Part shown: positions 2,721 through 40,000 of the stretch, one piece after another
Layout of the letters: each line of letters opens with the position of its first letter
Position numbering within the stretch: the first letter of the stretch is position 1
Source of the DNA: Clostridia bacterium
GTDB taxonomy: Bacteria > Bacillota > Clostridia > TANB77 > UBA1234
Assembly: GCA_017469465.1 (NCBI GenBank)
Contig: JAFUGH010000014.1
Coordinates: 67,773 to 107,772 of the forward strand
DNA length: 40,000 bases
Direction of reading: 5' to 3'
Translations under genes and position numbers: made by a program
Notes under the pieces: generated by a model
What the model was told of the DNA's origin: nothing
Seen by the model: only the letters and a program-made list of their open reading frames with translations
Databases searched by the model: none

Positions 2721-3485
2721 ATGATTTATATTACAGGTGACACTCATGCAGATTTTTCAAGATTTGAAGATGGTAAATTTTCAATACAAAATGAAATGAC
2801 GAAAGATGACTTTGTAATCATTTGCGGTGATTTTGGTGGCGTATGGACTTATGAAATGGAAAGTATTTTAGAGCAAAAGAATTTAGATTGGCTTAATACT
2901 AGAAATTTTACTACACTGTTTGTAGATGGAAACCATGAAAACTATACAAGATTATATAATGATTATCCAGTAATAGAATGGCATGGTGGAAAAGTACATA
3001 AAATTAGAGATTCTGTATTACACTTAATGCGTGGAGAAGTTTTCGACATAGATGGAAAAACAATATTTGCATTTGGTGGTGCAAGATCACATGATATTCA
3101 AGATGGAATACTTAATTTAGATGAAGAGGAGAAGATATATGAATATCGAAAAAGAGGTGCATATTTTAGAATAAGAGATTATTCTTGGTGGGATTTAGAA
3201 TTGCCAACGGAAGCGGAAATGAAAAATGGAATTGCAAATCTGGAAAAGAATAATTTCAAAGTAGATTATATTATTACACATTGCTGCCCAACCAATGTTC
3301 AAACATTAGTAAATTTAAGATATAAAAAAGATTACTTAACTGATTATTTGCAAACGATAGCAGAAAAGTGTGATTTCAAAAAATGGTTCTTTGGACACTA
3401 TCACGAAAACAAACATATTAATCCTCAATACACATTGATATATGAAGGTATAGAACCATTGGAATATGTTAAAGAGTTCATATAA
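2721..3485 (+). CDS. calcineurin-like metallophosphoesterase
   Basis: Motifs GDTHAD, ICGDFGG, VDGNHENY and GHYH. SD AAAGGA lies upstream. Confidence 0.85.
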   Translation: MIYITGDTHADFSRFEDGKFSIQNEMTKDDFVIICGDFGGVWTYEMESILEQKNLDWLNTRNFTTLFVDGNHENYTRLYNDYPVIEWHGGKVHKIRDSVLHLMRGEVFDIDGKTIFAFGGARSHDIQDGILNLDEEEKIYEYRKRGAYFRIRDYSWWDLELPTEAEMKNGIANLEKNNFKVDYIITHCCPTNVQTLVNLRYKKDYLTDYLQTIAEKCDFKKWFFGHYHENKHINPQYTLIYEGIEPLEYVKEFI

Positions 3486-6912: not shown

Positions 6913-8964
6913 ATGCATAGTAAATTAAAGTTTTTAGGTATGCTAATAATTGTTATCTCGATGGTGTGTTTTGTTCCAACAGTATTTGGTGCAAAAGAAA
7001 TATTTATAAATAAAACAATAGATAAAATTGTTATTAATTTTGACTATGAAGCATATCCAGCCAATACAACAAGAACTTATGGAGAATTAGCTAATGATTT
7101 ACGATATACTTATCCAAGGGATGCTTCATATTCAACTGATACCTATTGTTTTGTTGATTCAAATCATATAGGACTTAGTTATAAGAAAAATGGAGAAATA
7201 ATAGCTGTTCCTTATCCAGAATATGATAGTAAAATTAATGCAAATGATGAACTATATGTGTCTTACTGGATATATCCAGCAACAAGTAAAGGCTATGAAT
7301 TTGGTAGCTCTGAAGCAAAAGTAATATTTAACGATAAAGAACTACCAAAAACAGAATATGTATATAAAGATCGTTCTTCATTTATTTTACTTTATATCCA
7401 TATACCTATTATTGAAGGAACAAAAGTGGATAGAGTTTTATTCGAAGAGTTTGAACCTATATACGATGGTCAACAATACATTTCAAATGTGGAGATTGAT
7501 AATTCATTCGATGTTCCATGTACTATAACGAAACAAGGCTTTCTAATGTTTAATAAAGAATTAACTGGAACAGCTAAAAAAGGTGAAACAGTTGGGCAAT
7601 ATGTTATCGTAAAACTTGACGAAGGATATTATTGGGCTGATGATTCGATTGGTAGAATAGTTGGAACACGAAATACTTTCTCACAAGGCGAAAAAATAAG
7701 TGATAATGAATATAAATTCATATATGTCTATACAATTGAAAGCAAAAAAGATTTATTAGTAATTCATGATTTGCCAGATATCATAGAATACAAAGAAGGA
7801 GAAGAGGTTAAACTATCAATTTATGCTACTTCTGGTGCTACTAAAGTTCAATGGAATGAAGTAATTGATTTAGGAGGGAAAAAAGGAACCAAAGAAATTC
7901 CAATTGAAGGAGCAACAACTAATACTTTAGATTTAGGTAAGATTGATAATACTTACGATGGTAAACATTATAATATTGTTGCTTCGGATGATACAGGAGC
8001 AATTAGAAAATCTAAAACTTTTACTTTAAAATGTACTGGGGTTGTGGAAACAACGCAAATAGAACAACCTGCAAAAACTGAAACACCAACACACCAACCT
8101 ATACAAACAGAACAACAAAAGACTGAAGTTAAGTATAAAGTTGAATTTAATTCAAATGGCGGAAACATTGTTGCGACTCAAGAAGTAGCAGAAAAAGGAA
8201 AAGTAACAAAACCAGCTACTCCAACAAAAGATGGATATACATTTGATGGTTGGTATACGGATGAAAAATTAACAAAAGTATTTGATTTTAATACAGCAAT
8301 AAATAGTGATATTACTTTATATGCAAAATGGAATGTAACTAAAAAAGAAGAACAACCAACTATTTCAATAGAGCCAACAACAAATCCATCGCAACCAAAT
8401 GAAGGAAAAAAGGAAACTTGGAGCAATGCTTCAGAGTGGGCGAAAGAAGAATTATACAAAGTAAATGAAGAAAATCTAATGCCTTGGATATTTGACAAAG
8501 AGGATTTAACAGTAAATATTACAAGACGTGAATTTGCTTATGTAGCAGTAAAATTATATGAGAAGATAACGAATGAGAAGTTAGTAGAATCGAAAGAAAA
8601 TCCATTCATAGATACAAGTGATATTGAAGTTTTAAAAGCATATAATATTGGTATCACAAATGGTACATCTGCAACAACATTTTCACCAGATACTTTAATC
8701 ACTCGTGAGCAAATGGCAACAATGATGACAAGAGCGGTTTCAAAAGCAGAAATTGATACGAAAGTAGATTTAAGTAAGGTAAGTAAGTTCGCAGATGATA
8801 GCGAGATGCACGATTGGGGCAAAGAGTCAATCTACTTTATGTCTAACATAGAGATAATTAAAGGAATTGGAAATAACACGTTTAATGTATTGGGCAATGC
8901 GACAAGAGAACAAGCATTACTGATATCAGTAAGGAGTGCAGCAAAGTTTAGCAGTGCGAAATGA
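6913..8964 (+). CDS. secreted surface protein: signal peptide, Ig-like region, Listeria-Bacteroides (Flg_new) repeat, C-terminal SLH domains
   Basis: N-terminal signal LGMLIIVISMVCFVPTVFGA. YKVEFNSNGG...GYTFDGWYTD...ITLYAKW is a Flg_new repeat. SLH-like blocks are WA.E.., FSPDTLITREQMATMMTR and FADDSEMHDWGKESIYFM...GNATREQALL. Confidence 0.9.
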   Translation: MHSKLKFLGMLIIVISMVCFVPTVFGAKEIFINKTIDKIVINFDYEAYPANTTRTYGELANDLRYTYPRDASYSTDTYCFVDSNHIGLSYKKNGEIIAVPYPEYDSKINANDELYVSYWIYPATSKGYEFGSSEAKVIFNDKELPKTEYVYKDRSSFILLYIHIPIIEGTKVDRVLFEEFEPIYDGQQYISNVEIDNSFDVPCTITKQGFLMFNKELTGTAKKGETVGQYVIVKLDEGYYWADDSIGRIVGTRNTFSQGEKISDNEYKFIYVYTIESKKDLLVIHDLPDIIEYKEGEEVKLSIYATSGATKVQWNEVIDLGGKKGTKEIPIEGATTNTLDLGKIDNTYDGKHYNIVASDDTGAIRKSKTFTLKCTGVVETTQIEQPAKTETPTHQPIQTEQQKTEVKYKVEFNSNGGNIVATQEVAEKGKVTKPATPTKDGYTFDGWYTDEKLTKVFDFNTAINSDITLYAKWNVTKKEEQPTISIEPTTNPSQPNEGKKETWSNASEWAKEELYKVNEENLMPWIFDKEDLTVNITRREFAYVAVKLYEKITNEKLVESKENPFIDTSDIEVLKAYNIGITNGTSATTFSPDTLITREQMATMMTRAVSKAEIDTKVDLSKVSKFADDSEMHDWGKESIYFMSNIEIIKGIGNNTFNVLGNATREQALLISVRSAAKFSSAK

Positions 8965-8990
8965 CCCAAGTGGGACAACCTTTTTTGGTT
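8963..8990 (+). repeat. REP copy R1
   Basis: GACCCAAGTGGGACAACCTTTTTTGGTT. The TGA stop of the SLH gene (8962-8964) overlaps its left end. Confidence 0.85.
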
Positions 8991-9017
8991 AGCAACTCTT
9001 GTTTAATGGTGTCTATT

Positions 9018-9043
9018 GTCAATTAGGGACATTCCTTTTTGAC
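9018..9043 (+). repeat. REP copy R2 (GTCAA variant)
   Basis: GTCAATTAGGGACATTCCTTTTTGAC. Confidence 0.8.
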
Positions 9044-9127
9044 AAAAATAAGGATGTGATTTTTTTGAAAAATTTTTTAAATAATATTAGATGTGTAGAA
9101 AATGACATTAAATTAAAAAATAAAATA

Positions 9128-9715
9128 ATGAATAGCATACTAATTTTTCTATTTGGAATAGTTCTAGGAATGTTTTCTAAATGGTTAGATAATTTAGTAC
9201 TTGATAGTAACATTTGGTGGATGAAAATTATTGAAAAATTTGATTTGAATTATTTCTTTTCTGAAATGGCCATTTGGCTTTTTATAGCTATTGCTATTTC
9301 AGTTTTTAGTAAGTCTCCGTTAAGAGCTAGTGTTAATGTTTTTCTATTTTTTATTGGTATGTGTATTAGTTATCATTTATATACAATTATATTTAGTGGA
9401 TTTAATCCTCAAAATTACATGATGATATGGTATGGATTGACTATTATATCACCACTTCTTGCATATATATGTTGGTATAGCAAAAGTGAAAAAAAATTAT
9501 CAATTATTATAAATGCTTTGATAATGTTTATAATGTTTGCGAGTTGTTTTAGTTTTGGAATGTTTTATTTTGATTTTAAAGGAGCTTTATACACAATCGT
9601 ATTTATAGGTACTTGCATAGTTTTGTATAAGAAACCTATAAATTTAGAAATTAGTTTAGTAGTAATAGGTTTAGTACTAGCATTTATGATAAAAATACCT
9701 TTTATAAGTGGCTGA
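9128..9715 (+). CDS. polytopic membrane protein, unknown function
   Basis: Track ORF 8999..9715. Start moved to ATG 9128 because the upstream part overlaps the REP copies. About 6 hydrophobic segments. The SD is weak, so the start is uncertain. Confidence 0.6.
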
Positions 9716-9789
9716 TGATGCGAGGTATGATGTAATAGAGCTGTTCCTATTTGTCATGTGGTGATGAATAGCTGATTGGAGGAATTAAA

Positions 9790-10296
9790 ATGATTTTTAG
9801 GTTGGCATGTGTGAATGATTTGAGTAGTATAAAAACAATGTATGAGGAAATTATAGAGAATATGAATCAAAATAATATTTGTATTTGGAATGAGTATTAT
9901 CCGTTTGAATGTTTTGAAGGAGATATTAATAGTCAAAGGCTTTACGTACTGGAAGAAAATGATAGTATTGTAGCTGCATGTGCTTTGTGCGATTCTAATG
10001 AAGCAGAAAAAAATATGAAGTGGAAAAATGAAGAAGCCAGAGCTTTATATATTGATAGATTGGGAGTAAATGTAAATTATCAAGGAAAAGGATATGGTTC
10101 TTTGGTAATTAAAAATGTGATTGAGATAGCAAGAAAGAATCAATTTGAATATTTAAGACTATTTGTAGTAGATATCAATAATCCAGCGATTTGCTTATAT
10201 GAAAAGAATAGATTTGAAAAACTTAATGGAGTTTATGAAGAAAAGATAAATGAAAAAGTAACATTAAAAGAATATGCCTATGAAATGAAAATTTGA
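9790..10296 (+). CDS. GNAT family N-acetyltransferase
   Basis: LGVNVNYQGKGYGSLVIKNVIEIARK is the Q/RxxGxG/A motif. SD GGAGG. Confidence 0.85.
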   Translation: MIFRLACVNDLSSIKTMYEEIIENMNQNNICIWNEYYPFECFEGDINSQRLYVLEENDSIVAACALCDSNEAEKNMKWKNEEARALYIDRLGVNVNYQGKGYGSLVIKNVIEIARKNQFEYLRLFVVDINNPAICLYEKNRFEKLNGVYEEKINEKVTLKEYAYEMKI

Positions 10297-10321
10297 ACAA
10301 CTGGGACAACCTTTTTTGTTC
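10295..10321 (+). repeat. REP copy R3
   Basis: GAACAACTGGGACAACCTTTTTTGTTC. The stop TGA 10294-10296 overlaps it. Confidence 0.85.
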
Positions 10322-10350
10322 ACATCCACATATGGTCAGCATTAAAAAAT

Positions 10351-10377
10351 GATCCAAAAAGACTGTCCCAATTGTTC
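10351..10377 (-). repeat. REP copy R4 (inverted partner of R3)
   Basis: Reverse complement reads GAACAATTGGGACAGTCTTTTTGGATC. Confidence 0.8.
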
Positions 10378-10406
10378 ATAAAATTTATAAAAAAAGGACT
10401 TAAAAT

Positions 10407-11465
10407 ATGTCAGTTACATTTAGTGATTTTTTAAATAATTTAATAAGTACACCAGTTTTATTTATTATTTCTATTTTAATATCAGCAGTCATGTTTATTA
10501 ATGGATGTTCGGATGTGCCAAATGCTATTGCTACTTGTGTTTCTACAAGAAGTTTAAGTCCTAAAAAGGCATTAGTATTAGCAGCAATTTTTAATTCTTT
10601 AGGAGTTTTTGTTGTTACGTTGATAACATCGAAGGTAGCAGAAACGGTATTTCATATTGTCAATTTTGAAAGCGATGGCATGAGTAGTATCATTGCTCTA
10701 TGTAGTGCTTTAATCGGAATTGTATTATGGTGTACAATATCTTGGCTTTTTGGAATTCCTTCAAGTCAGTCGCACGCCTTAATTGCAGGTATCTCTGGAG
10801 CTGCAATAGCTTTGCAAGGCAATCTATCGGGAATTAATTTCGAAGAATGGAAGAAGGTTCTATACGGTTTATTTATCATAAATATTCTTGCATTTTTTAT
10901 GGGATTTTTAATAACAAAATTAATTGAAAAAATTTGTAAAAACATGGATAGAAGAAAAACGAATCGATTTTTCAAAAGGATGCAGATTTATGGTGCTGTT
11001 TCAATGTGCTTTATGAATGGTGCTCAAGATGGACAAAAATTTATGGCAATTTTATTATTAGGCGTTGTACTTGCAAATGGAAATACACAATTATTAGGTA
11101 GTTTTTCTATCCCGATTTGGCTTATGATTTATTGTTCATTACTAATAGCAATGGGTGCTATTATTGGTGGAATAAGAATTATAAAAACGATTGGAACGAA
11201 AGTAAGTAAGGTGGAAAGATATCAGGGAACTGCAGCAGATATTTCAAGTACATTGTGCTTAATAGGATCTTCTATTCTTGGTATTCCAGTTAGTTCAACA
11301 CATACAAAAAACTGTGCTGTTATGGGAGTAGGAGCTTCAAAGAGATTATCAAATGTTAATTGGAAAGTGGCTAAAAATATTGTACTAACGTGGCTACTTA
11401 CATTTCCTGGATGTGGTTTATTAGGGTATATTTTAACGAAAATTTCTATCTCTATATTTTTGTAA
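10407..11465 (+). CDS. pit: inorganic phosphate transporter, PiT (PHO4) family
   Basis: GCSDVPNAIATCVSTR, GIPSSQSHALIAGISGA and GIPVSSTHTKNCAVMGVG are the duplicated PiT signature. Confidence 0.9.
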   Translation: MSVTFSDFLNNLISTPVLFIISILISAVMFINGCSDVPNAIATCVSTRSLSPKKALVLAAIFNSLGVFVVTLITSKVAETVFHIVNFESDGMSSIIALCSALIGIVLWCTISWLFGIPSSQSHALIAGISGAAIALQGNLSGINFEEWKKVLYGLFIINILAFFMGFLITKLIEKICKNMDRRKTNRFFKRMQIYGAVSMCFMNGAQDGQKFMAILLLGVVLANGNTQLLGSFSIPIWLMIYCSLLIAMGAIIGGIRIIKTIGTKVSKVERYQGTAADISSTLCLIGSSILGIPVSSTHTKNCAVMGVGASKRLSNVNWKVAKNIVLTWLLTFPGCGLLGYILTKISISIFL

Positions 11466-11482
11466 AGGTAAAGGTGATTTCA

Positions 11483-12106
11483 GTGAAGAAAAAAGAAAAT
11501 TATAATTATTTTACGGAGTTAATAACAATTACAGAGCATATAGTAAAATCTGCAGAAACTTTAAAAAATGTTATAGAAAACTTTAATCTAGAAAAATTAA
11601 ATATGGAAATTCACGAAGTTCATGGCTTAGAAAATGAAGCGGATAAGATAGTGCACACAATGAGAAACAATCTTGTCAAAGATTTTCTCCCGCCCATTGA
11701 TAGAGAAGATATTGCTCTTATTAGTCATAAATTAGATAATATAGAAGATGGAATAGATGAGGTATTAATTAATATAAAAATACTAGATATTACAGAAATA
11801 AGGGAAGAAGTAATAGAACTTGTAAATATATTACTTTCCTCTTGCAAGGTTGTGCAAGAAATATTTGTTGCATTTAATAATTTAAAAAATTTAGAGCTTG
11901 TGAGTCAAAAAGTAATTGACGTTAATCAATTGGAAGAGAAGGGAGATAGAGCATATGAAAAACTCATGACATCTTTATATAAAACTGAAAAGAACTCGAT
12001 CAATTTAATAAAATGGTCGAGCATATATAATTGTCTTGAAGAAACGATTGATAGTTGTGAAGAAATTGCTGATTCTATGCAAGATGTTGTGATGAAAAAT
12101 TCATGA
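11483..12106 (+). CDS. DUF47 / PhoU-like phosphate transport accessory protein
   Basis: GLENEADKIVHTMRNNL..FLPPIDREDI is typical of DUF47 proteins that follow PiT genes. Start set to GTG 11483 behind AAGGTGA. The track start at 11390 would overlap pit. Confidence 0.8.
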   Translation: MKKKENYNYFTELITITEHIVKSAETLKNVIENFNLEKLNMEIHEVHGLENEADKIVHTMRNNLVKDFLPPIDREDIALISHKLDNIEDGIDEVLINIKILDITEIREEVIELVNILLSSCKVVQEIFVAFNNLKNLELVSQKVIDVNQLEEKGDRAYEKLMTSLYKTEKNSINLIKWSSIYNCLEETIDSCEEIADSMQDVVMKNS

Positions 12107-12131
12107 CCAAGTGGGACAGCCTTTTTTGTTC
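12105..12131 (+). repeat. REP copy R5
   Basis: GACCAAGTGGGACAGCCTTTTTTGTTC. The stop TGA 12104-12106 overlaps it. Confidence 0.85.
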
Positions 12132-12165
12132 ACAAGGATAATTTTTTTGAAAGAGGGGATTATAA

Positions 12166-13112: not shown

Positions 13113-14006
13113 ATGATGGAAAGAATAAAAAAATTATTTGGTGGAATTGACTTAAGCTGGAAAAAGTTAATTATATTTGCAATAATTACAGCAGTATATA
13201 CAGCAATTATGGCTATCATCCCAATCACTGCAGATACATCTTTTAGAGATATAGCTGCCACACTTGAATGGTGGATATTATTTGGTGTAATTATTATTTG
13301 CAATAGTAAGTCTAATTTAGATTCTGCTTTAAAATGTTTTGTATTCTTTTTAATTAGTCAACCTTTAATATATTTGTTACAGGTTCCATTTAGTTGGCAA
13401 GGTTGGAATTTGTTTTCATATTATAAATATTGGTTCATATGGACACTACTTACAATTCCAATGGGATATATTGGATATTACATAAAAAAAGACAATATAT
13501 TCAGTGTAATCATTTTACTCCCAATGCTAATATTACTAGCTATTATGGGTATAGGATTTTTCAGCAGTGCATTGGCAAGCTTTCCACATCATCTATTATC
13601 TGGTATATTCTGCTTTATTGCAATAACACTTATTATACTAGGAGTATTAAGTAAAAAGAAAAATATAATACTATCATTTGCTGTTATTATTACATTTACA
13701 ATTGTCTATGTGTTAATTAGCAATGGAATATTATTTGATACATATAAAAAATACGAAACATATGAAGATTTAAAAGAATATGGCATTACATTAAGTGATG
13801 AATATTACGTTTCTGGATTTTTTAGTACAGAACAAGGAACTGCTGAACTAATTGAAAAAGATGGAGAGCATGTGTTGAAATTAACTGGAATAAAAAATGC
13901 AATTTATAAATTTGGTATTTCTAGTGAAGATGATACGCAATTAAGATTTGAATATCACTTTGATAATGATGGAAAATTAGTTTTAGAAAAAGTTGATGTC
14001 AATTAG
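13113..14006 (+). CDS. membrane protein with C-terminal soluble domain, unknown function
   Basis: SD GAGGAGG. About 6 TM segments followed by a ~90-aa hydrophilic tail. The last codons and the TAG stop lie inside REP R6. Confidence 0.75.
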   Translation: MMERIKKLFGGIDLSWKKLIIFAIITAVYTAIMAIIPITADTSFRDIAATLEWWILFGVIIICNSKSNLDSALKCFVFFLISQPLIYLLQVPFSWQGWNLFSYYKYWFIWTLLTIPMGYIGYYIKKDNIFSVIILLPMLILLAIMGIGFFSSALASFPHHLLSGIFCFIAITLIILGVLSKKKNIILSFAVIITFTIVYVLISNGILFDTYKKYETYEDLKEYGITLSDEYYVSGFFSTEQGTAELIEKDGEHVLKLTGIKNAIYKFGISSEDDTQLRFEYHFDNDGKLVLEKVDVN

Positions 14007-14023
14007 GGACATACCTTTTTGAC
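13998..14023 (+). repeat. REP copy R6 (GTCAA variant)
   Basis: GTCAATTAGGGACATACCTTTTTGAC. It contains the upstream gene's TAG stop (14004-14006). Confidence 0.8.
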
Positions 14024-14067
14024 GATACATGTAACATCAAAAATGGTTACTCATGTTTAATATTTTT

Positions 14068-14094
14068 GACCAAGTGGGACAACCTTTTTTGGTC
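14068..14094 (+). repeat. REP copy R7 (consensus)
   Basis: GACCAAGTGGGACAACCTTTTTTGGTC. Confidence 0.9.
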
Positions 14095-14122
14095 AGCAAC
14101 ACTTGGGCAATGTCGAAAAATT

Positions 14123-14149
14123 GAACAAGAAAGGTTGTCTCGTTTGTTC
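14123..14149 (-). repeat. REP copy R8 (inverted partner of R7)
   Basis: Reverse complement reads GAACAAACGAGACAACCTTTCTTGTTC. Confidence 0.8.
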
Positions 14150-14161
14150 AGTTCCATTTGT

Positions 14162-17627: not shown

Positions 17628-18074
17628 ATGATGGCATTATTTGAGGTGTTTAAAGAAACATTTTTTGCATTTGTTGGTGCAAGATCACATGATATTCAAG
17701 ATGGAATACTTAACTTGGATGAAGAAGAAAAGATATATCAGTATCGAAAAAGAGGTACATATTTTAGAATAAGAGATTATTCTTGGTGGAATTTAGAATT
17801 GCCAACAGAAGAAATGCAAAGCGGAATCACAAAAATAGAAAAGCACAACTACAAAGTAGATTATATTATCACGCATTGTTGTTCAACAAATATTCATCCA
17901 TTAATCAATCTAGCATATAAGAAAGATTACTTAACTGACTACTTGCAAACAATAGCTGAAAAGTGTGATTTTAAAAAATGGTTTTTTGGGCATTACCATG
18001 AAAATAAATCAATTAATTCACAATTTAAATTATTATATGAAGATATAGTGCCAATAGAATACAACAGATGTTAA
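17628..18074 (+). pseudogene. 5'-truncated paralogue of the metallophosphoesterase at 2721..3485
   Basis: From about 17650-17665 onward the DNA is visibly highly similar to 3050-3470 (FAFVGARSHDIQDGILNLDEEEKIY...KKWFFGHYHEN). The N-terminal GDxH / GD / GNHE metal-binding motifs are absent. Confidence 0.8.
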
Positions 18075-21339: not shown

Positions 21340-21346
21340 ACGAAGT

Positions 21347-21396
21347 GACCAAGTGGGACAACCTTTTTTGACCAAGTGGGACAACCTTTTTTGGTC
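21347..21396 (+). repeat. tandem REP doublet R11-R12, left flank of the RAYT gene
   Basis: GACCAAGTGGGACAACCTTTTTT GACCAAGTGGGACAACCTTTTTTGGTC. Confidence 0.9.
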
Positions 21397-21432
21397 ATTT
21401 GAATGACATACTTATCGACATAATCTGAAGCA

Positions 21433-21460
21433 TTGACATTTATTTTAATTGTGATAGAAT
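21433..21460 (+). promoter_or_regulatory. putative promoter of the RAYT gene (TTGACA-16-TAGAAT with TG extension)
   Basis: Read directly. Confidence 0.5.
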
Positions 21461-21476
21461 AAAAAAAGTTTATGGG

Positions 21477-21516
21477 GAAAACTTGCTAAATTATATTAGC
21501 TAGTTTTCTCTTTTTT
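21477..21516 (+). terminator. terminator-like hairpin inside the RAYT 5' leader
   Basis: GAAAACTTGCTAA / TTAGCTAGTTTTC (13 bp, 1 mismatch), 6-nt loop, then TCTTTTTT. It lies between the promoter and the SD GGAGGGGAGGAG. Confidence 0.5.
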
Positions 21517-21538
21517 GTAAACAGGAGGGGAGGAGAAG

Positions 21539-22294
21539 ATGCCTAGAAAACCTAGATATTATAATACATCAGATTTTTATCATATTATGGTACAAGGAGA
21601 TGAAAAGAAATATATTTTTAAACACGATAAGTATAAAAGAAAATATCGATATTTATTGAAACATAATGCAATGAAAAATGATGTTGAAATTATTTCATAT
21701 TGCATAATGAATAATCATGTTCATGTATTAGTTTTTTGCCCTGAAATTAAAAGAATATCTAAAATGATGTTGCAGATTAATACTTCATTTGGCTTGTATT
21801 ATAATAATGATCGACAAAAAGTGGGTCATGTTTTTAGAGAAAGATATAGGGCAGAAGCAATATATACTAAATACCATCTAATAAACTGTATAAAATATAT
21901 TCATGAAAATCCAGTTAAGGCAGGAATATGTAGGAAATGTAATGAATATATGTATTCAAGTTATCAAGAAATTTCTAAAGTAAGTAATAGTCTATTACAA
22001 ATTTGTGATATTTCCACTAATGAGTTAAATAATATTCTTAATTCTCCACATACAGAAAGTAAATTTATTGATGATGATAGTGAAAAGGAGGATGTTGAGA
22101 AAGTTTTTGTAGAAATAAAGAGGAGAAAAGATATTAAAGTAGAGGATACTAAATATATTTCAGAAATATATTGTGAAATAAAAAAAAGATGCAAAGTAAC
22201 GGATAGCCAAATTGCAATTTTGTTAGGAATTGAGAGAAGCAAATTCTTAAGAATGCTTAGAAAAGAAGGAATTAAAAAAGTTGTTCATAGATAA
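21539..22294 (+). CDS. REP-associated tyrosine transposase (RAYT; IS200/IS605 TnpA-like HUH Y1 enzyme) with C-terminal HTH-like tail
   Basis: MPRKPRYY..DFYHIMVQG, the HUH motif NNHVHVLV, GHVFRERYRAEAI and YIHENPVKAGI match the COG1943/RayT pattern. Confidence 0.85.
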   Translation: MPRKPRYYNTSDFYHIMVQGDEKKYIFKHDKYKRKYRYLLKHNAMKNDVEIISYCIMNNHVHVLVFCPEIKRISKMMLQINTSFGLYYNNDRQKVGHVFRERYRAEAIYTKYHLINCIKYIHENPVKAGICRKCNEYMYSSYQEISKVSNSLLQICDISTNELNNILNSPHTESKFIDDDSEKEDVEKVFVEIKRRKDIKVEDTKYISEIYCEIKKRCKVTDSQIAILLGIERSKFLRMLRKEGIKKVVHR

Positions 22295-22306
22295 TGTTGA
22301 AAAAAT

Positions 22307-22364
22307 GACCAAAAAAGGTTGTCCCGTTTGGTTAAAAAAGGTTGTCCCGTTTGGTTACTTGGTC
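22307..22364 (-). repeat. tandem REP doublet R13-R14 (inverted), right flank of the RAYT gene
   Basis: Reverse complement reads GACCAAGTAACCAAACGGGACAACCTTTTTTAACCAAACGGGACAACCTTTTTTGGTC. Confidence 0.9.
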
Positions 22365-22366
22365 AG

Positions 22367-22395
22367 TTGACAAATTTAAAAAAGAATGTTAAAAT
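22367..22395 (+). promoter_or_regulatory. promoter TTGACA-17-TAAAAT
   Basis: Read directly. It lies ~210 nt upstream of the methyltransferase start codon. Confidence 0.6.
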
Positions 22396-22401
22396 GGATT
22401 T

Positions 22402-22567
22402 GTGGTAAATCAATTAGTTATTCGCGGCTTATCACCAATTAAGTTTTGAAAAACTTTGGGTTAATAATGACGAGAACCTTAGAATCTCATCATGAATGAC
22501 AAAAAATACTACAGCTATAAATCTGTGGTTTGTTTTTGCTGTTCATGAAAGGAGGTTCTTTTTTTTA
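22402..22567 (+). promoter_or_regulatory. ~165-nt structured leader ending in a terminator-like long hairpin: candidate attenuator or riboswitch of unknown class
   Basis: AGAACCT (22473-79) pairs with AGGTTCT (22553-59), and TCATGAA (22490-96) pairs with TTCATGA (22542-48). A T8 run follows. The real SD AAGGAG lies 30 nt further downstream. Confidence 0.4.
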
Positions 22568-22609
22568 TTATTTAAAACCACAAAAAATAAAATATAAGGA
22601 GAAATGAAA

Positions 22610-23374
22610 ATGGAAGAAAAAGAATATTATGAGCAAATAAAAGATTGGAATTTTGATGAGTTCCAAATTGAAACAGAAGAATTTACAAACTGGGATATGT
22701 TTGAAATTTTAAAAAGTGTTACAAATGAAAATTCGAGAATACTAGATTTAGGAACTGGTGGAGGCGAAAAAGTGATAAAGTATTTCCCTGAATATGCAAA
22801 AGAAATAATAGCAACAGATTTTTCAAAAGCAATGGTTGAAACTGCAAAAGAGAATCTAAAAAAATCAGGAAGAAAAAATATTACATTTAGAATAATGGAC
22901 AATTTACACATGGATGTTCCAAAAGAATATTTTGATGTAGTAGTTGCAAGAAATACTCCATCTTGTCCAAAGCAAATCTATGAATGTTTGAAACCAGGAG
23001 GTTATTTAATCATTCATGGAGTGGATAAATATGACTGTTTTAACTTGAAAAAACTATATGGAAAAGGTCAGGCTTATGATGATACTACTCCAATAAGCAT
23101 CATTGACTATAGTGCGGTTATAGATGCAGGTTTTAAAGATGCTGAATTGGTTCCTCTTCATGAAAGAGAGTATTTTAAAAACGAAGATTTGTTATATAAA
23201 TTCATGCTTAAAGTACCGATTTTAGATGAATTTTCAGAAGAAGAGGGAGAGGTTAAGGACTATTACTTAAATGAACTAGATAAAGAAAAACTACATGAAT
23301 ATGTATTAAAAAACACTTGTGAAAAAGGAATAAGATTAATAAGAAGATATTATGGAATTACAGCAAGAAAATAA
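22610..23374 (+). CDS. class I SAM-dependent methyltransferase
   Basis: ILDLGTGGGEKV, ATDFSKAMVE and DVVVARNT. Start set to ATG 22610, 8 nt after AAGGAG; ATG 22604 is too close to the SD. Confidence 0.8.
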   Translation: MEEKEYYEQIKDWNFDEFQIETEEFTNWDMFEILKSVTNENSRILDLGTGGGEKVIKYFPEYAKEIIATDFSKAMVETAKENLKKSGRKNITFRIMDNLHMDVPKEYFDVVVARNTPSCPKQIYECLKPGGYLIIHGVDKYDCFNLKKLYGKGQAYDDTTPISIIDYSAVIDAGFKDAELVPLHEREYFKNEDLLYKFMLKVPILDEFSEEEGEVKDYYLNELDKEKLHEYVLKNTCEKGIRLIRRYYGITARK

Positions 23375-23510
23375 TAATTGAAGACAGTTTTTCTCTAAAG
23401 AGAGCATTTAGAATAGCTTTAATTGTAAAACAATTAATTATATGATGTTGGCAAATAGAAGTATTCAAATGTTAATATCATTATTGTGTATAATAGGAGG
23501 AAGTGGTTAT

Positions 23511-24020
23511 ATGGATAATTTAAAAGAATTAAAAAATGAGAGTATTATAGAGTTAATAAAAAGAGGAAAAGTTACTGCGGCTGATTTTGTTGATTCTGGA
23601 ATATGTCCGACATGTTTTGATAGACAAAATAATCATATTTTATATGGAAATAATGAAGATAAAATGATTTTTGAAAATGATAAATTTGAATGCTTCTTGG
23701 TAGGCAATCCAAGAGCTGAAGGACATGCTGCTATAAGCACAAAAAAACACTTTAAGGATATGATGGGGATTGATGATGAAACGTGTAAAAATATATTTTT
23801 AATAGCAAAAAAATTAATGAATTTATTAAAAGAAATATATAATGCTGAAAGTGTATATTTATGTACAATGTGTGATGGACCAATGAATCATTTTCATTTA
23901 CAATTAATTCCAAGGTATTCATTTGAAAAAAGAGGTTCAAAAAATTTTGTTAAACCTAGATTTGAATATAAAGAAAATAGAGACAAACTTATGGAATTGA
24001 GAGATAAAATGCAAAATTGA
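23511..24020 (+). CDS. HIT (histidine triad) family protein, H-x-H-x-Q variant
   Basis: Triad NHFHLQLIP. Start moved to MDNLKELK behind AGGAGG. A CPTC motif lies near the N-terminus. Confidence 0.85.
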   Translation: MDNLKELKNESIIELIKRGKVTAADFVDSGICPTCFDRQNNHILYGNNEDKMIFENDKFECFLVGNPRAEGHAAISTKKHFKDMMGIDDETCKNIFLIAKKLMNLLKEIYNAESVYLCTMCDGPMNHFHLQLIPRYSFEKRGSKNFVKPRFEYKENRDKLMELRDKMQN

Positions 24021-24055
24021 CCAAGTGGGACAACAAATAGTGACAAATTTTGGTT
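24019..24055 (+). repeat. REP copy R15 (interrupted)
   Basis: GACCAAGTGGGACAAC, then a 13-nt insertion, then TTTTGGTT. The stop TGA 24018-24020 overlaps it. Confidence 0.6.

Positions 24056-37975: not shown

Positions 37976-38049
<74 letters not shown>

Positions 38050-38626: not shown

Positions 38627-40000
<1,374 letters not shown>

Follow-up and report, generated by a model that had tools for sequence, protein, structure and literature searches.

A likely REPtron-like unit with a helix-turn-helix-bearing RAYT enzyme and dispersed loop-conserved hairpin repeats in a Clostridia-type bacterium

The DNA analyzed here (the window) is a 40,000-nucleotide stretch of contig JAFUGH010000014.1 from a Clostridia bacterium, with a G+C content of 29%. 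It carries an intact open reading frame (ORF) for a 251-aa Y1 HUH enzyme of the RAYT/TnpA-REP family, which sits between two inverted repeat arms, and further copies of the same repeat are dispersed among the neighbouring genes. The best explanation of this arrangement, and one that we consider likely, is a unit resembling a REPtron, i.e. a RAYT gene bracketed by repetitive extragenic palindromes (REPs), and belonging to the RAYT branch whose members bear a helix-turn-helix (HTH) domain (RAYT Group 1, TnpA-REP subclass 2.1 or “TIRYT-TIRtron”). We infer that the repeats have been mobilized by the enzyme.

The original prediction of a RAYT-type Y1 transposase with HUH and tyrosine motifs was borne out: the ORF is intact, residues H60, H62 and Y120 are in place, and the product matches the Pfam family Y1_Tnp (E = 4.9e-11). 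The profile comparison proposed in the same prediction favoured RAYT over IS200, since the NCBIfam model REP_Tyr_transpos (NF047646) gave 73.2 bits (E = 1.9e-20) and the IS200 model (NF033573) only 18.2 bits against a cut-off of 55. The REP model ranked first for all 45 aligned homologues, 27 of which also matched the IS200 model weakly. Three motifs were distinguished, NNHVHVL (H60-V-H62), F99-R-E-R102-Y103 and Y120-IHENPVKAG. The RAYT motifs are invariant or nearly so among the 45 homologues; the two HUH histidines and the tyrosine are unchanged in all of them, which suggests that catalysis is under selection. The family is large, comprising 2,447 clusters (50% identity) at E ≤ 1e-30 and 21,290 at E ≤ 1e-10.

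Structural comparisons lead to the same relative. When the family profile was searched against the PDB, Escherichia coli TnpA-REP (4er8) was retrieved at E = 2.5e-4, ahead of ISDra2 TnpA (0.03); a search with the single sequence was uninformative (4er8 at E = 1.5). In the motif alignment, which extends from the HUH motif through the catalytic tyrosine, the corresponding residues of 4er8 are H59/H61 and Y115 (Y120 aligning with Y115). An AlphaFold model of the protein (mean pLDDT 85.6) had 4er8_A as its best Foldseek match (E = 4e-7, target-normalised TM-score 0.68), with the TnpA proteins of IS608 and ISDra2 at about 1e-4. Past residue ~145 the protein runs into a helical region, the last four helices of which (residues 186-242) were modelled with pLDDT values of about 76-91. 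Weak HTH matches were found in family members (HTH_24 in 11, HTH_Crp_2 in 8, HTH_8 in 7, HTH_7 in 3 and HTH_23 in 2, as well as Sigma70_r4), and the window protein alone gave no significant HTH match in Pfam. In the model, this segment behaves as a C-terminal HTH-like domain. The residues through which the E. coli enzyme contacts the GTAG tetranucleotide of its REPs (W94, Q95, W99, E100, H101 and R104, as listed in Fig. S11 of PMC6006769) align to F99, R100, R104, A105, E106 and Y109; in the profile alignment to 4er8 the six positions read F, R, R/K, A/S, E and Y.

A repeat search of the window delimited the inverted arms as 61-nt segments (21340-21400 and 22303-22363) that are 89% complementary, each holding a pair of 23-nt tandem units with 100% identity. 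The tandem units of the left arm follow directly on the stop codon of an upstream SLH-domain gene, and they differ from those of the right arm at three positions (TGACCAAGT versus TAACCAAAC). The foldable unit comprises 29 nt: AT-rich stem strands (TGACCAA/TTGGTCA) pair over 7 bp around a loop of 15 nt, which opens with the conserved core (T/C)GGGACAACC. The tandem period is 23 nt. Each “doublet” consists of one complete hairpin preceded by an extra 23-nt 5′ stem and loop without a 3′ stem of its own. The coordinates of the arms and of all other features are summarized in Table 1.

Table 1. Features of the Y1 locus, repeat copies in the window and partial tandem units in homologous loci (window coordinates unless a locus is named).
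Feature	Position	Strand	Description
Dispersed copy	8962-8991	+	First three bases TGA (8962-8964) are the stop codon of ORF 6913-8964
Variant copy	9017-9044	+	Stem TGTCAA/TTGACA, loop TTAGGGACATTCCTT; fold z = -3.0
Dispersed copy	10294-10322	+	Covarying stem TGAACAA/TTGTTCA; ORF 9790-10296 ends in its TGA (10294-10296); partner of the inverted copy at 10350
Degenerate inverted copy	10350-10378	-	56 nt start-to-start from the copy at 10294
Dispersed copy	12104-12132	+	TGA (12104-12106) is the stop codon of ORF 11390-12106
Variant copy	13998-14023	+	Stem GTCAA/TTGAC; contains the TAG stop codon (14004-14006) of ORF 13113-14006; fold z = -4.3
Dispersed copy	14067-14095	+	23-nt stem-plus-loop unit identical to the left-arm unit
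Degenerate inverted copy	14122-14150	-	TGAACAAACGAGACAACCTTTCTTGTTCA; 55 nt start-to-start from the copy at 14067
Left repeat arm (with partial tandem unit)	21346-21397	+	TGACCAAGTGGGACAACCTTTTT twice (21346-21368, 21369-21391), then TGGTCA (21392-21397); 23-nt unit made of 5′ stem TGACCAA and loop GTGGGACAACCTTTT.., the pair closed by 3′ stem TTGGTCA
Putative promoter	21433-21460	+	Sigma-70 type, TTGACA-16 nt-TAGAAT with TG extension; 11/12 matches; inside the inverted arms, upstream of the Y1 gene
Leader stem-loop and T-run	21474-21516	+	Stem-loop 21474-21510, T-run 21511-21516; between promoter and ribosome-binding site; terminator/attenuator-like
Y1 HUH enzyme, RAYT/TnpA-REP family	21539-22294	+	251 aa; catalytic core at residues ~10-145; HTH-like domain at residues ~186-242 (22094-22264)
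Right repeat arm (with partial tandem unit)	22306-22365	-	Opposite in orientation to the left arm; reading from 22365 to 22306, TGACCAAG (outermost) is followed by two TAACCAAACGGGACAACCTTTTT units and TGGTCA
Truncated copy	24018-24034	+	5′ stem and core only; TGA (24018-24020) is the stop codon of ORF 23442-24020
Partial tandem unit, L009	9923-9960
Partial tandem unit, L038	5903-5940	+	Also in the downstream flank
Partial tandem unit, L049	493-520
Partial tandem unit, L102	13-50
Partial tandem unit, L018	9770-9840

The 22-mer ACCAAGTGGGACAACCTTTTTT occurs eight times in the window at up to three mismatches, and no occurrence was found in any of 100 dinucleotide shuffles. A looser search added degenerate copies, two copies of the variant GTCAATTAGGGACATnCCTTTTTGAC and the truncated copy at 24018, so that the repeat is found about nine more times besides the arms. 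When the window was extended by ~9.7 kb upstream and ~9 kb downstream, the 58.7 kb of contig then covered yielded 16 copies, where none would be expected by chance. Away from the gene, the repeat takes the form of lone hairpins or inverted pairs and not of paired 61-nt ends. The stem covaries within the window (TGACCAA/TTGGTCA versus TGAACAA/TTGTTCA). No GTAG was found at or beside any of the window copies, and beyond TGA...TCA their flanking sequences show no conservation. When 185,579 species genomes, the host species not among them, were scanned for CAANYGGGACARCCTTTTTTGKT, three isolated matches in unrelated genomes were returned.

Several earlier expectations can be set against these data. 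The claim that the gene is bracketed by inverted repeats matching a dispersed family is upheld, close to the positions first proposed, by the 61-nt arms and the eight close matches. The 27-bp substrate has to be replaced by the 29-nt foldable unit. Two REPs had been assigned to each side of the gene; tandem 23-nt units are indeed present in both arms, but each arm contains only one complete hairpin. The flanking layout itself proved to be tied to the gene, as it recurs in 49 homologous loci, and a gene for an identical protein was found on eight metagenome contigs with the same neighbouring genes in all eight. From this shared context the gene appears to be single-copy and chromosomally fixed.

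The comparison of homologous loci covered homologues at 37-56% identity plus 80 more distant metagenome loci. Inverted arms composed of a short stem, a GGG(G)AC core and a complementary stem flank the gene in 7/7 of the first loci and in the 49 loci overall. Close relatives share the window core and differ in their stems, e.g. CGTCAAAA/TTTTGACG in L009 and a CGCACA-type stem in L011. More distant relatives mostly carry GGGGACGGTTCT, with stems such as GGCAGGCAA/TTGCCTGCC, GAGACAG/CTGTCTC and AACACAA/TTGTGTT. Although the stem sequence differs in every lineage, its complementarity is kept: the mean uninterrupted Watson-Crick stem measures 5.37 nt, compared with 3.42 ± 0.15 nt (maximum 3.96) when the 5′ and 3′ halves were permuted between loci (2,000 permutations). 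Judging from these sequences, the pairing of the hairpin is under selection. Given a fixed loop core and a conserved pairing between stem strands of freely varying sequence, the repeat would be recognized as a folded single strand and through its loop. Dispersed copies lying kilobases away from the gene were also found in the nearest relatives of the window lineage, L011, L014, L017 and L018.

The partial tandem units provide candidate sites of action. Every one of them starts at the hairpin's 5′ foot, and the end falls at one of two points, either right after GGGAC(G), as in L009 (twice), L038, L049, L102 and L018, or at the border between the loop and the 3′ stem, as in both window arms, L024, L054 and L088. 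The recurrence of these junctions in independent lineages may mark sites of cleavage and joining.

The strand on which the repeats lie was also considered. In most single copies the GGGACA strand is on the + strand of the window; because the GC skew is positive throughout (+0.16 to +0.34) and 40 of the 44 ORFs are on the + strand, this strand would be the lagging-strand template. Such a placement fits recognition in single-stranded DNA.

The following mechanism can be proposed, with a cleavage chemistry modelled on the known Y1 HUH enzymes IS608, ISDra2 and TnpA-REP (PMC8266576). Metal binding would fall to H60 and H62, with Y120 as the nucleophile. As a single-strand-DNA endonuclease/transferase, the enzyme would recognize the hairpin in single-stranded DNA, most plausibly in the lagging-strand template, and chiefly via the loop core instead of a GTAG tag. 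Cleavage by Y120 would yield a 5′-phosphotyrosine, and subsequent strand transfer would move or copy the repeats. The DNA may be cut and rejoined at the hairpin foot and/or just 3′ of the core; a 3′-OH from either of the two junction points, when joined to a 5′ end from the foot, would give exactly the partial tandem structures described above. The same activity that generated these units beside the gene would also have spread repeat copies through the intergenic DNA nearby, mostly to positions directly at gene 3′ ends. Expression of the gene would be driven by its own promoter and probably held low by a terminator hairpin in the leader.

Three published groups resemble this locus. RAYT-like genes named TIRYT (forming a “TIRtron”) are flanked by inverted repeats sharing the motif GGGGWSAS, and some of these repeats form moderately abundant dispersed families of single copies, dimers and clusters (Di Nocera et al. 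2013, PMC3733652). Subclass 2.1 of TnpA-REP contains long proteins with C-terminal HTH domains, near whose genes no REP-like sequences were found (Quentin et al. 2018, PMC6006769); a list of Clostridia members of this subclass was not found in the supplements of that paper. RAYT Group 1, the largest and most widespread group, includes Clostridia among its hosts, and the 16-mers flanking its genes are moderately repeated (Bertels et al. 2017, PMC5581495). TIRYT is probably identical with subclass 2.1, which likely corresponds to RAYT Group 1, an equivalence that rests on shared features and not on a tree with reference sequences. The window protein fits these groups on the same basis. As in all three, the Y1 enzyme exceeds classical RAYTs in length and carries an HTH-type domain at its C-terminus. 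As in TIRYT loci, the gene lies between inverted repeats with a G-rich motif, nGGGACAA in the window: (T/C)GGGACAA agrees with GGGGWSAS at 6/8 positions, while among relatives GGGGACAC and GGGGACAG fit it exactly and GGGGACGG is the commonest form. As in some TIRYT genomes, the flanking repeat is also dispersed. A difference from the published terminal inverted repeats (TIRs) is that the arms of the window and about 50 related loci are hairpins, with a lineage-specific stem and the motif placed at the 5′ side of the loop.

The classical REPtron layout (Nunvar; Ton-Hoang, PMC3333891) is matched in part. Like E. coli TnpA-REP (RayT/YafM, 4er8), the window protein is a Y1 HUH enzyme of the same fold with HxH and YxxxNPVK motifs, and inverted short palindromic repeats both bracket its gene and occur dispersed in intergenic DNA, where the inverted pairs resemble bacterial interspersed mosaic elements (BIMEs) or REP doublets forming hairpins (REPINs). 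However, the GTAG tetranucleotide of RAYT groups 2 and 3 and the residues that contact it are absent, and for this reason the locus is not assigned to the classical group 2/3 REPtrons. Moreover, the repeat has a 7-bp AT-rich stem and a conserved 15-nt loop in place of the long, GC-rich, imperfect stem of a classical REP, the protein carries the extra HTH tail of ~100 aa, and the host is a Clostridia-type organism of low G+C content. The original reading as a REPtron of the kind known from Proteobacteria is essentially correct and holds for the layout, with refinements: the conserved part of the repeat is the loop, not the stem, and the enzyme belongs to the HTH-bearing branch, not to the E. 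coli type. Novelty as a Firmicute pair is likewise weaker than had been implied, because RAYT Group 1 has already been reported in Clostridia (PMC5581495).

A number of observations weigh against the interpretation as a REPtron-like unit. The score of the window protein with REP_Tyr_transpos lies below the curated equivalog cut-off of 80 bits. Folded as DNA, the hairpin is weak (-4 to -6 kcal/mol); the z-scores of single copies are modest (-1.3 to -1.6), and the doublets fold no better than shuffles. Replication slippage could account for the origin of the tandem units, and the strand bias of the repeats is confounded with gene orientation. No copies were found between 24.1 kb and the end of the window at 40 kb. 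Four metagenome contigs of the same organism, compared with the window at 99.9-100% identity, have the same repeat content and no insertion polymorphism. Both the single-copy status of the gene and the genome-wide number of repeats are extrapolations from contigs. Finally, since only the gene-flanking copies were found in 32 of 44 related loci, proliferation is not general in the branch; the unit as a rule comprises two copies, and these have multiplied in certain lineages, that of the window among them.

The similarity of the 61-nt arms to terminal inverted repeats suggests an alternative, in which the whole repeat/gene/repeat block is an autonomous transposon (“TIRtron”) and the dispersed hairpins are its solo ends or miniature derivatives instead of substrates moved in trans by a fixed gene. 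This would agree with the diversity of gene neighbours among related species, i.e. SLH and methyltransferase genes in the window, PPDK in L009, phosphodiesterase and uvrB in L011, and CinA and ThrRS in L020, and with the duplication rate and plasmid presence of Group 1, which are the highest among true RAYT groups (PMC5581495). We nevertheless regard such a transposon as rather unlikely. The gene was found in one context in the 8/8 contigs encoding the identical protein, no target-site duplication is visible outside the arms in the window sequence, and the dispersed copies do not take the form of paired 61-nt ends. In addition, the window and L014 have the upstream SLH gene in common in spite of a protein identity of only 50%, and this suggests a fixed site and vertical descent. 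An ordinary IS200/IS605 insertion sequence, with the repeats as its subterminal hairpins, is already disfavoured and in our opinion very improbable, despite the name of the Pfam family (“Transposase IS200 like”) and the weak IS200 matches of some homologues. The TnpA proteins of IS608 and ISDra2 share the Y1 HUH fold, the recognition of hairpins in single-stranded DNA and an expected preference for the lagging-strand template; they are shorter (~130-150 aa) and have their tyrosine in a YxxxQ context, whereas that of the window protein is in the YxxxNPVK context of TnpA-REP, and the IS200 model scored far below its cut-off. IS200/IS605 elements are mobile, occur in multiple copies and differ between their left and right ends, and their hairpins are not dispersed alone. 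The unit in the window has symmetric inverted repeats at its ends, its gene seems to be present in one copy, no tnpB partner was identified in the ORF list of the window, and repeats without the gene occur at many sites.

It is also conceivable, if improbable, that the repeats are duplex operator or structural sites for the HTH domain, and that the protein is a domesticated regulator or nucleoid organizer whose Y1 catalysis no longer acts on them. The C-terminal HTH domain is conserved across the family, the repeats are located at gene boundaries and beside promoters (e.g. the -35 box at 22367 abuts the right arm), and most relatives have two flanking copies only, as autoregulatory sites would. 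On the other hand, a protein that had lost its catalytic role on the repeats is difficult to reconcile with HUH histidines and a catalytic tyrosine that are invariant in 45/45 homologues. Stems that covary to keep pairing around a conserved loop indicate a folded single strand instead of a duplex site, and the flanking motif does not resemble DnaA boxes (Quentin et al., PMC6006769).

The locus, taken as a REPtron-like unit with a domesticated single-strand-DNA transposase, is a genuine and fairly ordinary member of a widespread, poorly characterized branch. As the protein family is common, with thousands of clusters, the find is useful and not surprising. To our knowledge, REP/RAYT biochemistry is confined to group 2 and group 3 enzymes, namely those of E. 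coli, Stenotrophomonas and Marinomonas. What is new relative to the published papers is the reading of the “TIRs” as hairpins with a conserved loop, together with a Clostridia-type example in which the repeat family has proliferated. The locus and its relatives offer a compact and concrete substrate, namely a 29-nt hairpin with a conserved loop core, natural variants and candidate junction points, so that the HTH-bearing branch, which has had no defined substrate so far, becomes open to direct in vitro tests in a low-GC Gram-positive background. They also provide a case for studying how a flanking repeat becomes a genome-wide repeat family. We put forward a broader hypothesis only tentatively and with some doubt. 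The HTH-bearing branch might use a distinct substrate throughout, in which an arbitrary short stem presents a GGGGAC loop core and cleavage and joining take place at the 5′ foot and just 3′ of the core, a logic that recalls the nick-in-loop origins of rolling-circle Rep proteins more than it does the GTAG-guided cleavage of REPs. Within the Clostridia lineage of the window, the substrate might have given rise to a true REP-like population, the copies of which insert at the ends of genes and contribute stop codons, with the enzyme checked by a conserved leader attenuator.

The region between the left arm and the Y1 gene contains a putative promoter that, by its sequence and position, would be the gene's own (Table 1); homologous loci show equivalent -35 and -10 boxes. 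Downstream of the promoter comes a leader stem-loop, the RNA of which folds at -19.7 kcal/mol (z = -3.5). This structure is kept in seven close homologous loci, with compensatory changes at 7 of 14 pairs, and probably represents a terminator limiting expression of the Y1 gene. RNA structures repress the synthesis of IS200 transposase, and the Y1 leader hairpin is reminiscent of them. The possibility that the leader hairpin is a disguised repeat core was rejected, as GGGGACAA is present there in L014 only and not in the other loci. In two loci (L009 9745-10000 and L024 2405-2552) extra repeat copies have been inserted downstream of the leader hairpin and ahead of the Y1 start codon, splitting the promoter and leader from the ORF. 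A second near-consensus promoter (22367-22395; TTGACA, 17 nt, TAAAAT) abuts the outer end of the right arm and is followed by a leader of ~210 nt, in which lies a terminator-like hairpin (22508-22529) with a T-rich tail; next comes a methyltransferase gene (22604-23374). Searches of Rfam with the repeats, the Y1 gene leader hairpin and the leader of this downstream gene gave no family match.

Some minor features of the dispersed repeats deserve mention. They supply 5 of the 15 non-TAA stop codons in the window, in which TAA, TGA and TAG were counted 29, 12 and 3 times, respectively; four of the supplied stops are TGA, and the remaining one is the TAG inside a variant copy (Table 1). Inverted pairs with start-to-start distances of ~50-56 nt, similar to REPIN/BIME dimers, were found at 10294-10378, at 14067-14150 and ~6.9 kb upstream of the window start (L104, ~2753-2803). 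SLH-domain genes precede several repeats. A main role of the repeats as intrinsic terminators was considered and rejected: the stems are AT-rich, the loops are 15 nt long, the + strand copies have no following T-run, and none of the repeats was called by a terminator scan.

Further observations concern the surrounding DNA. In L017 a pair of genes resembling a diversity-generating retroelement (bAvd and reverse transcriptase; 8082-9858) is located directly upstream of the homologous Y1 gene and its repeats. Near the end of the window a tRNA gene (37976-38046) is followed by genes encoding a resolvase-domain protein and a large serine recombinase (38627-39010, continuing into L106 10344-11864), and this region is probably the edge of an integrated mobile element. 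A segment of ~410 bp is duplicated at 83% identity (3058-3466 and 17656-18061) within two paralogous ORFs.

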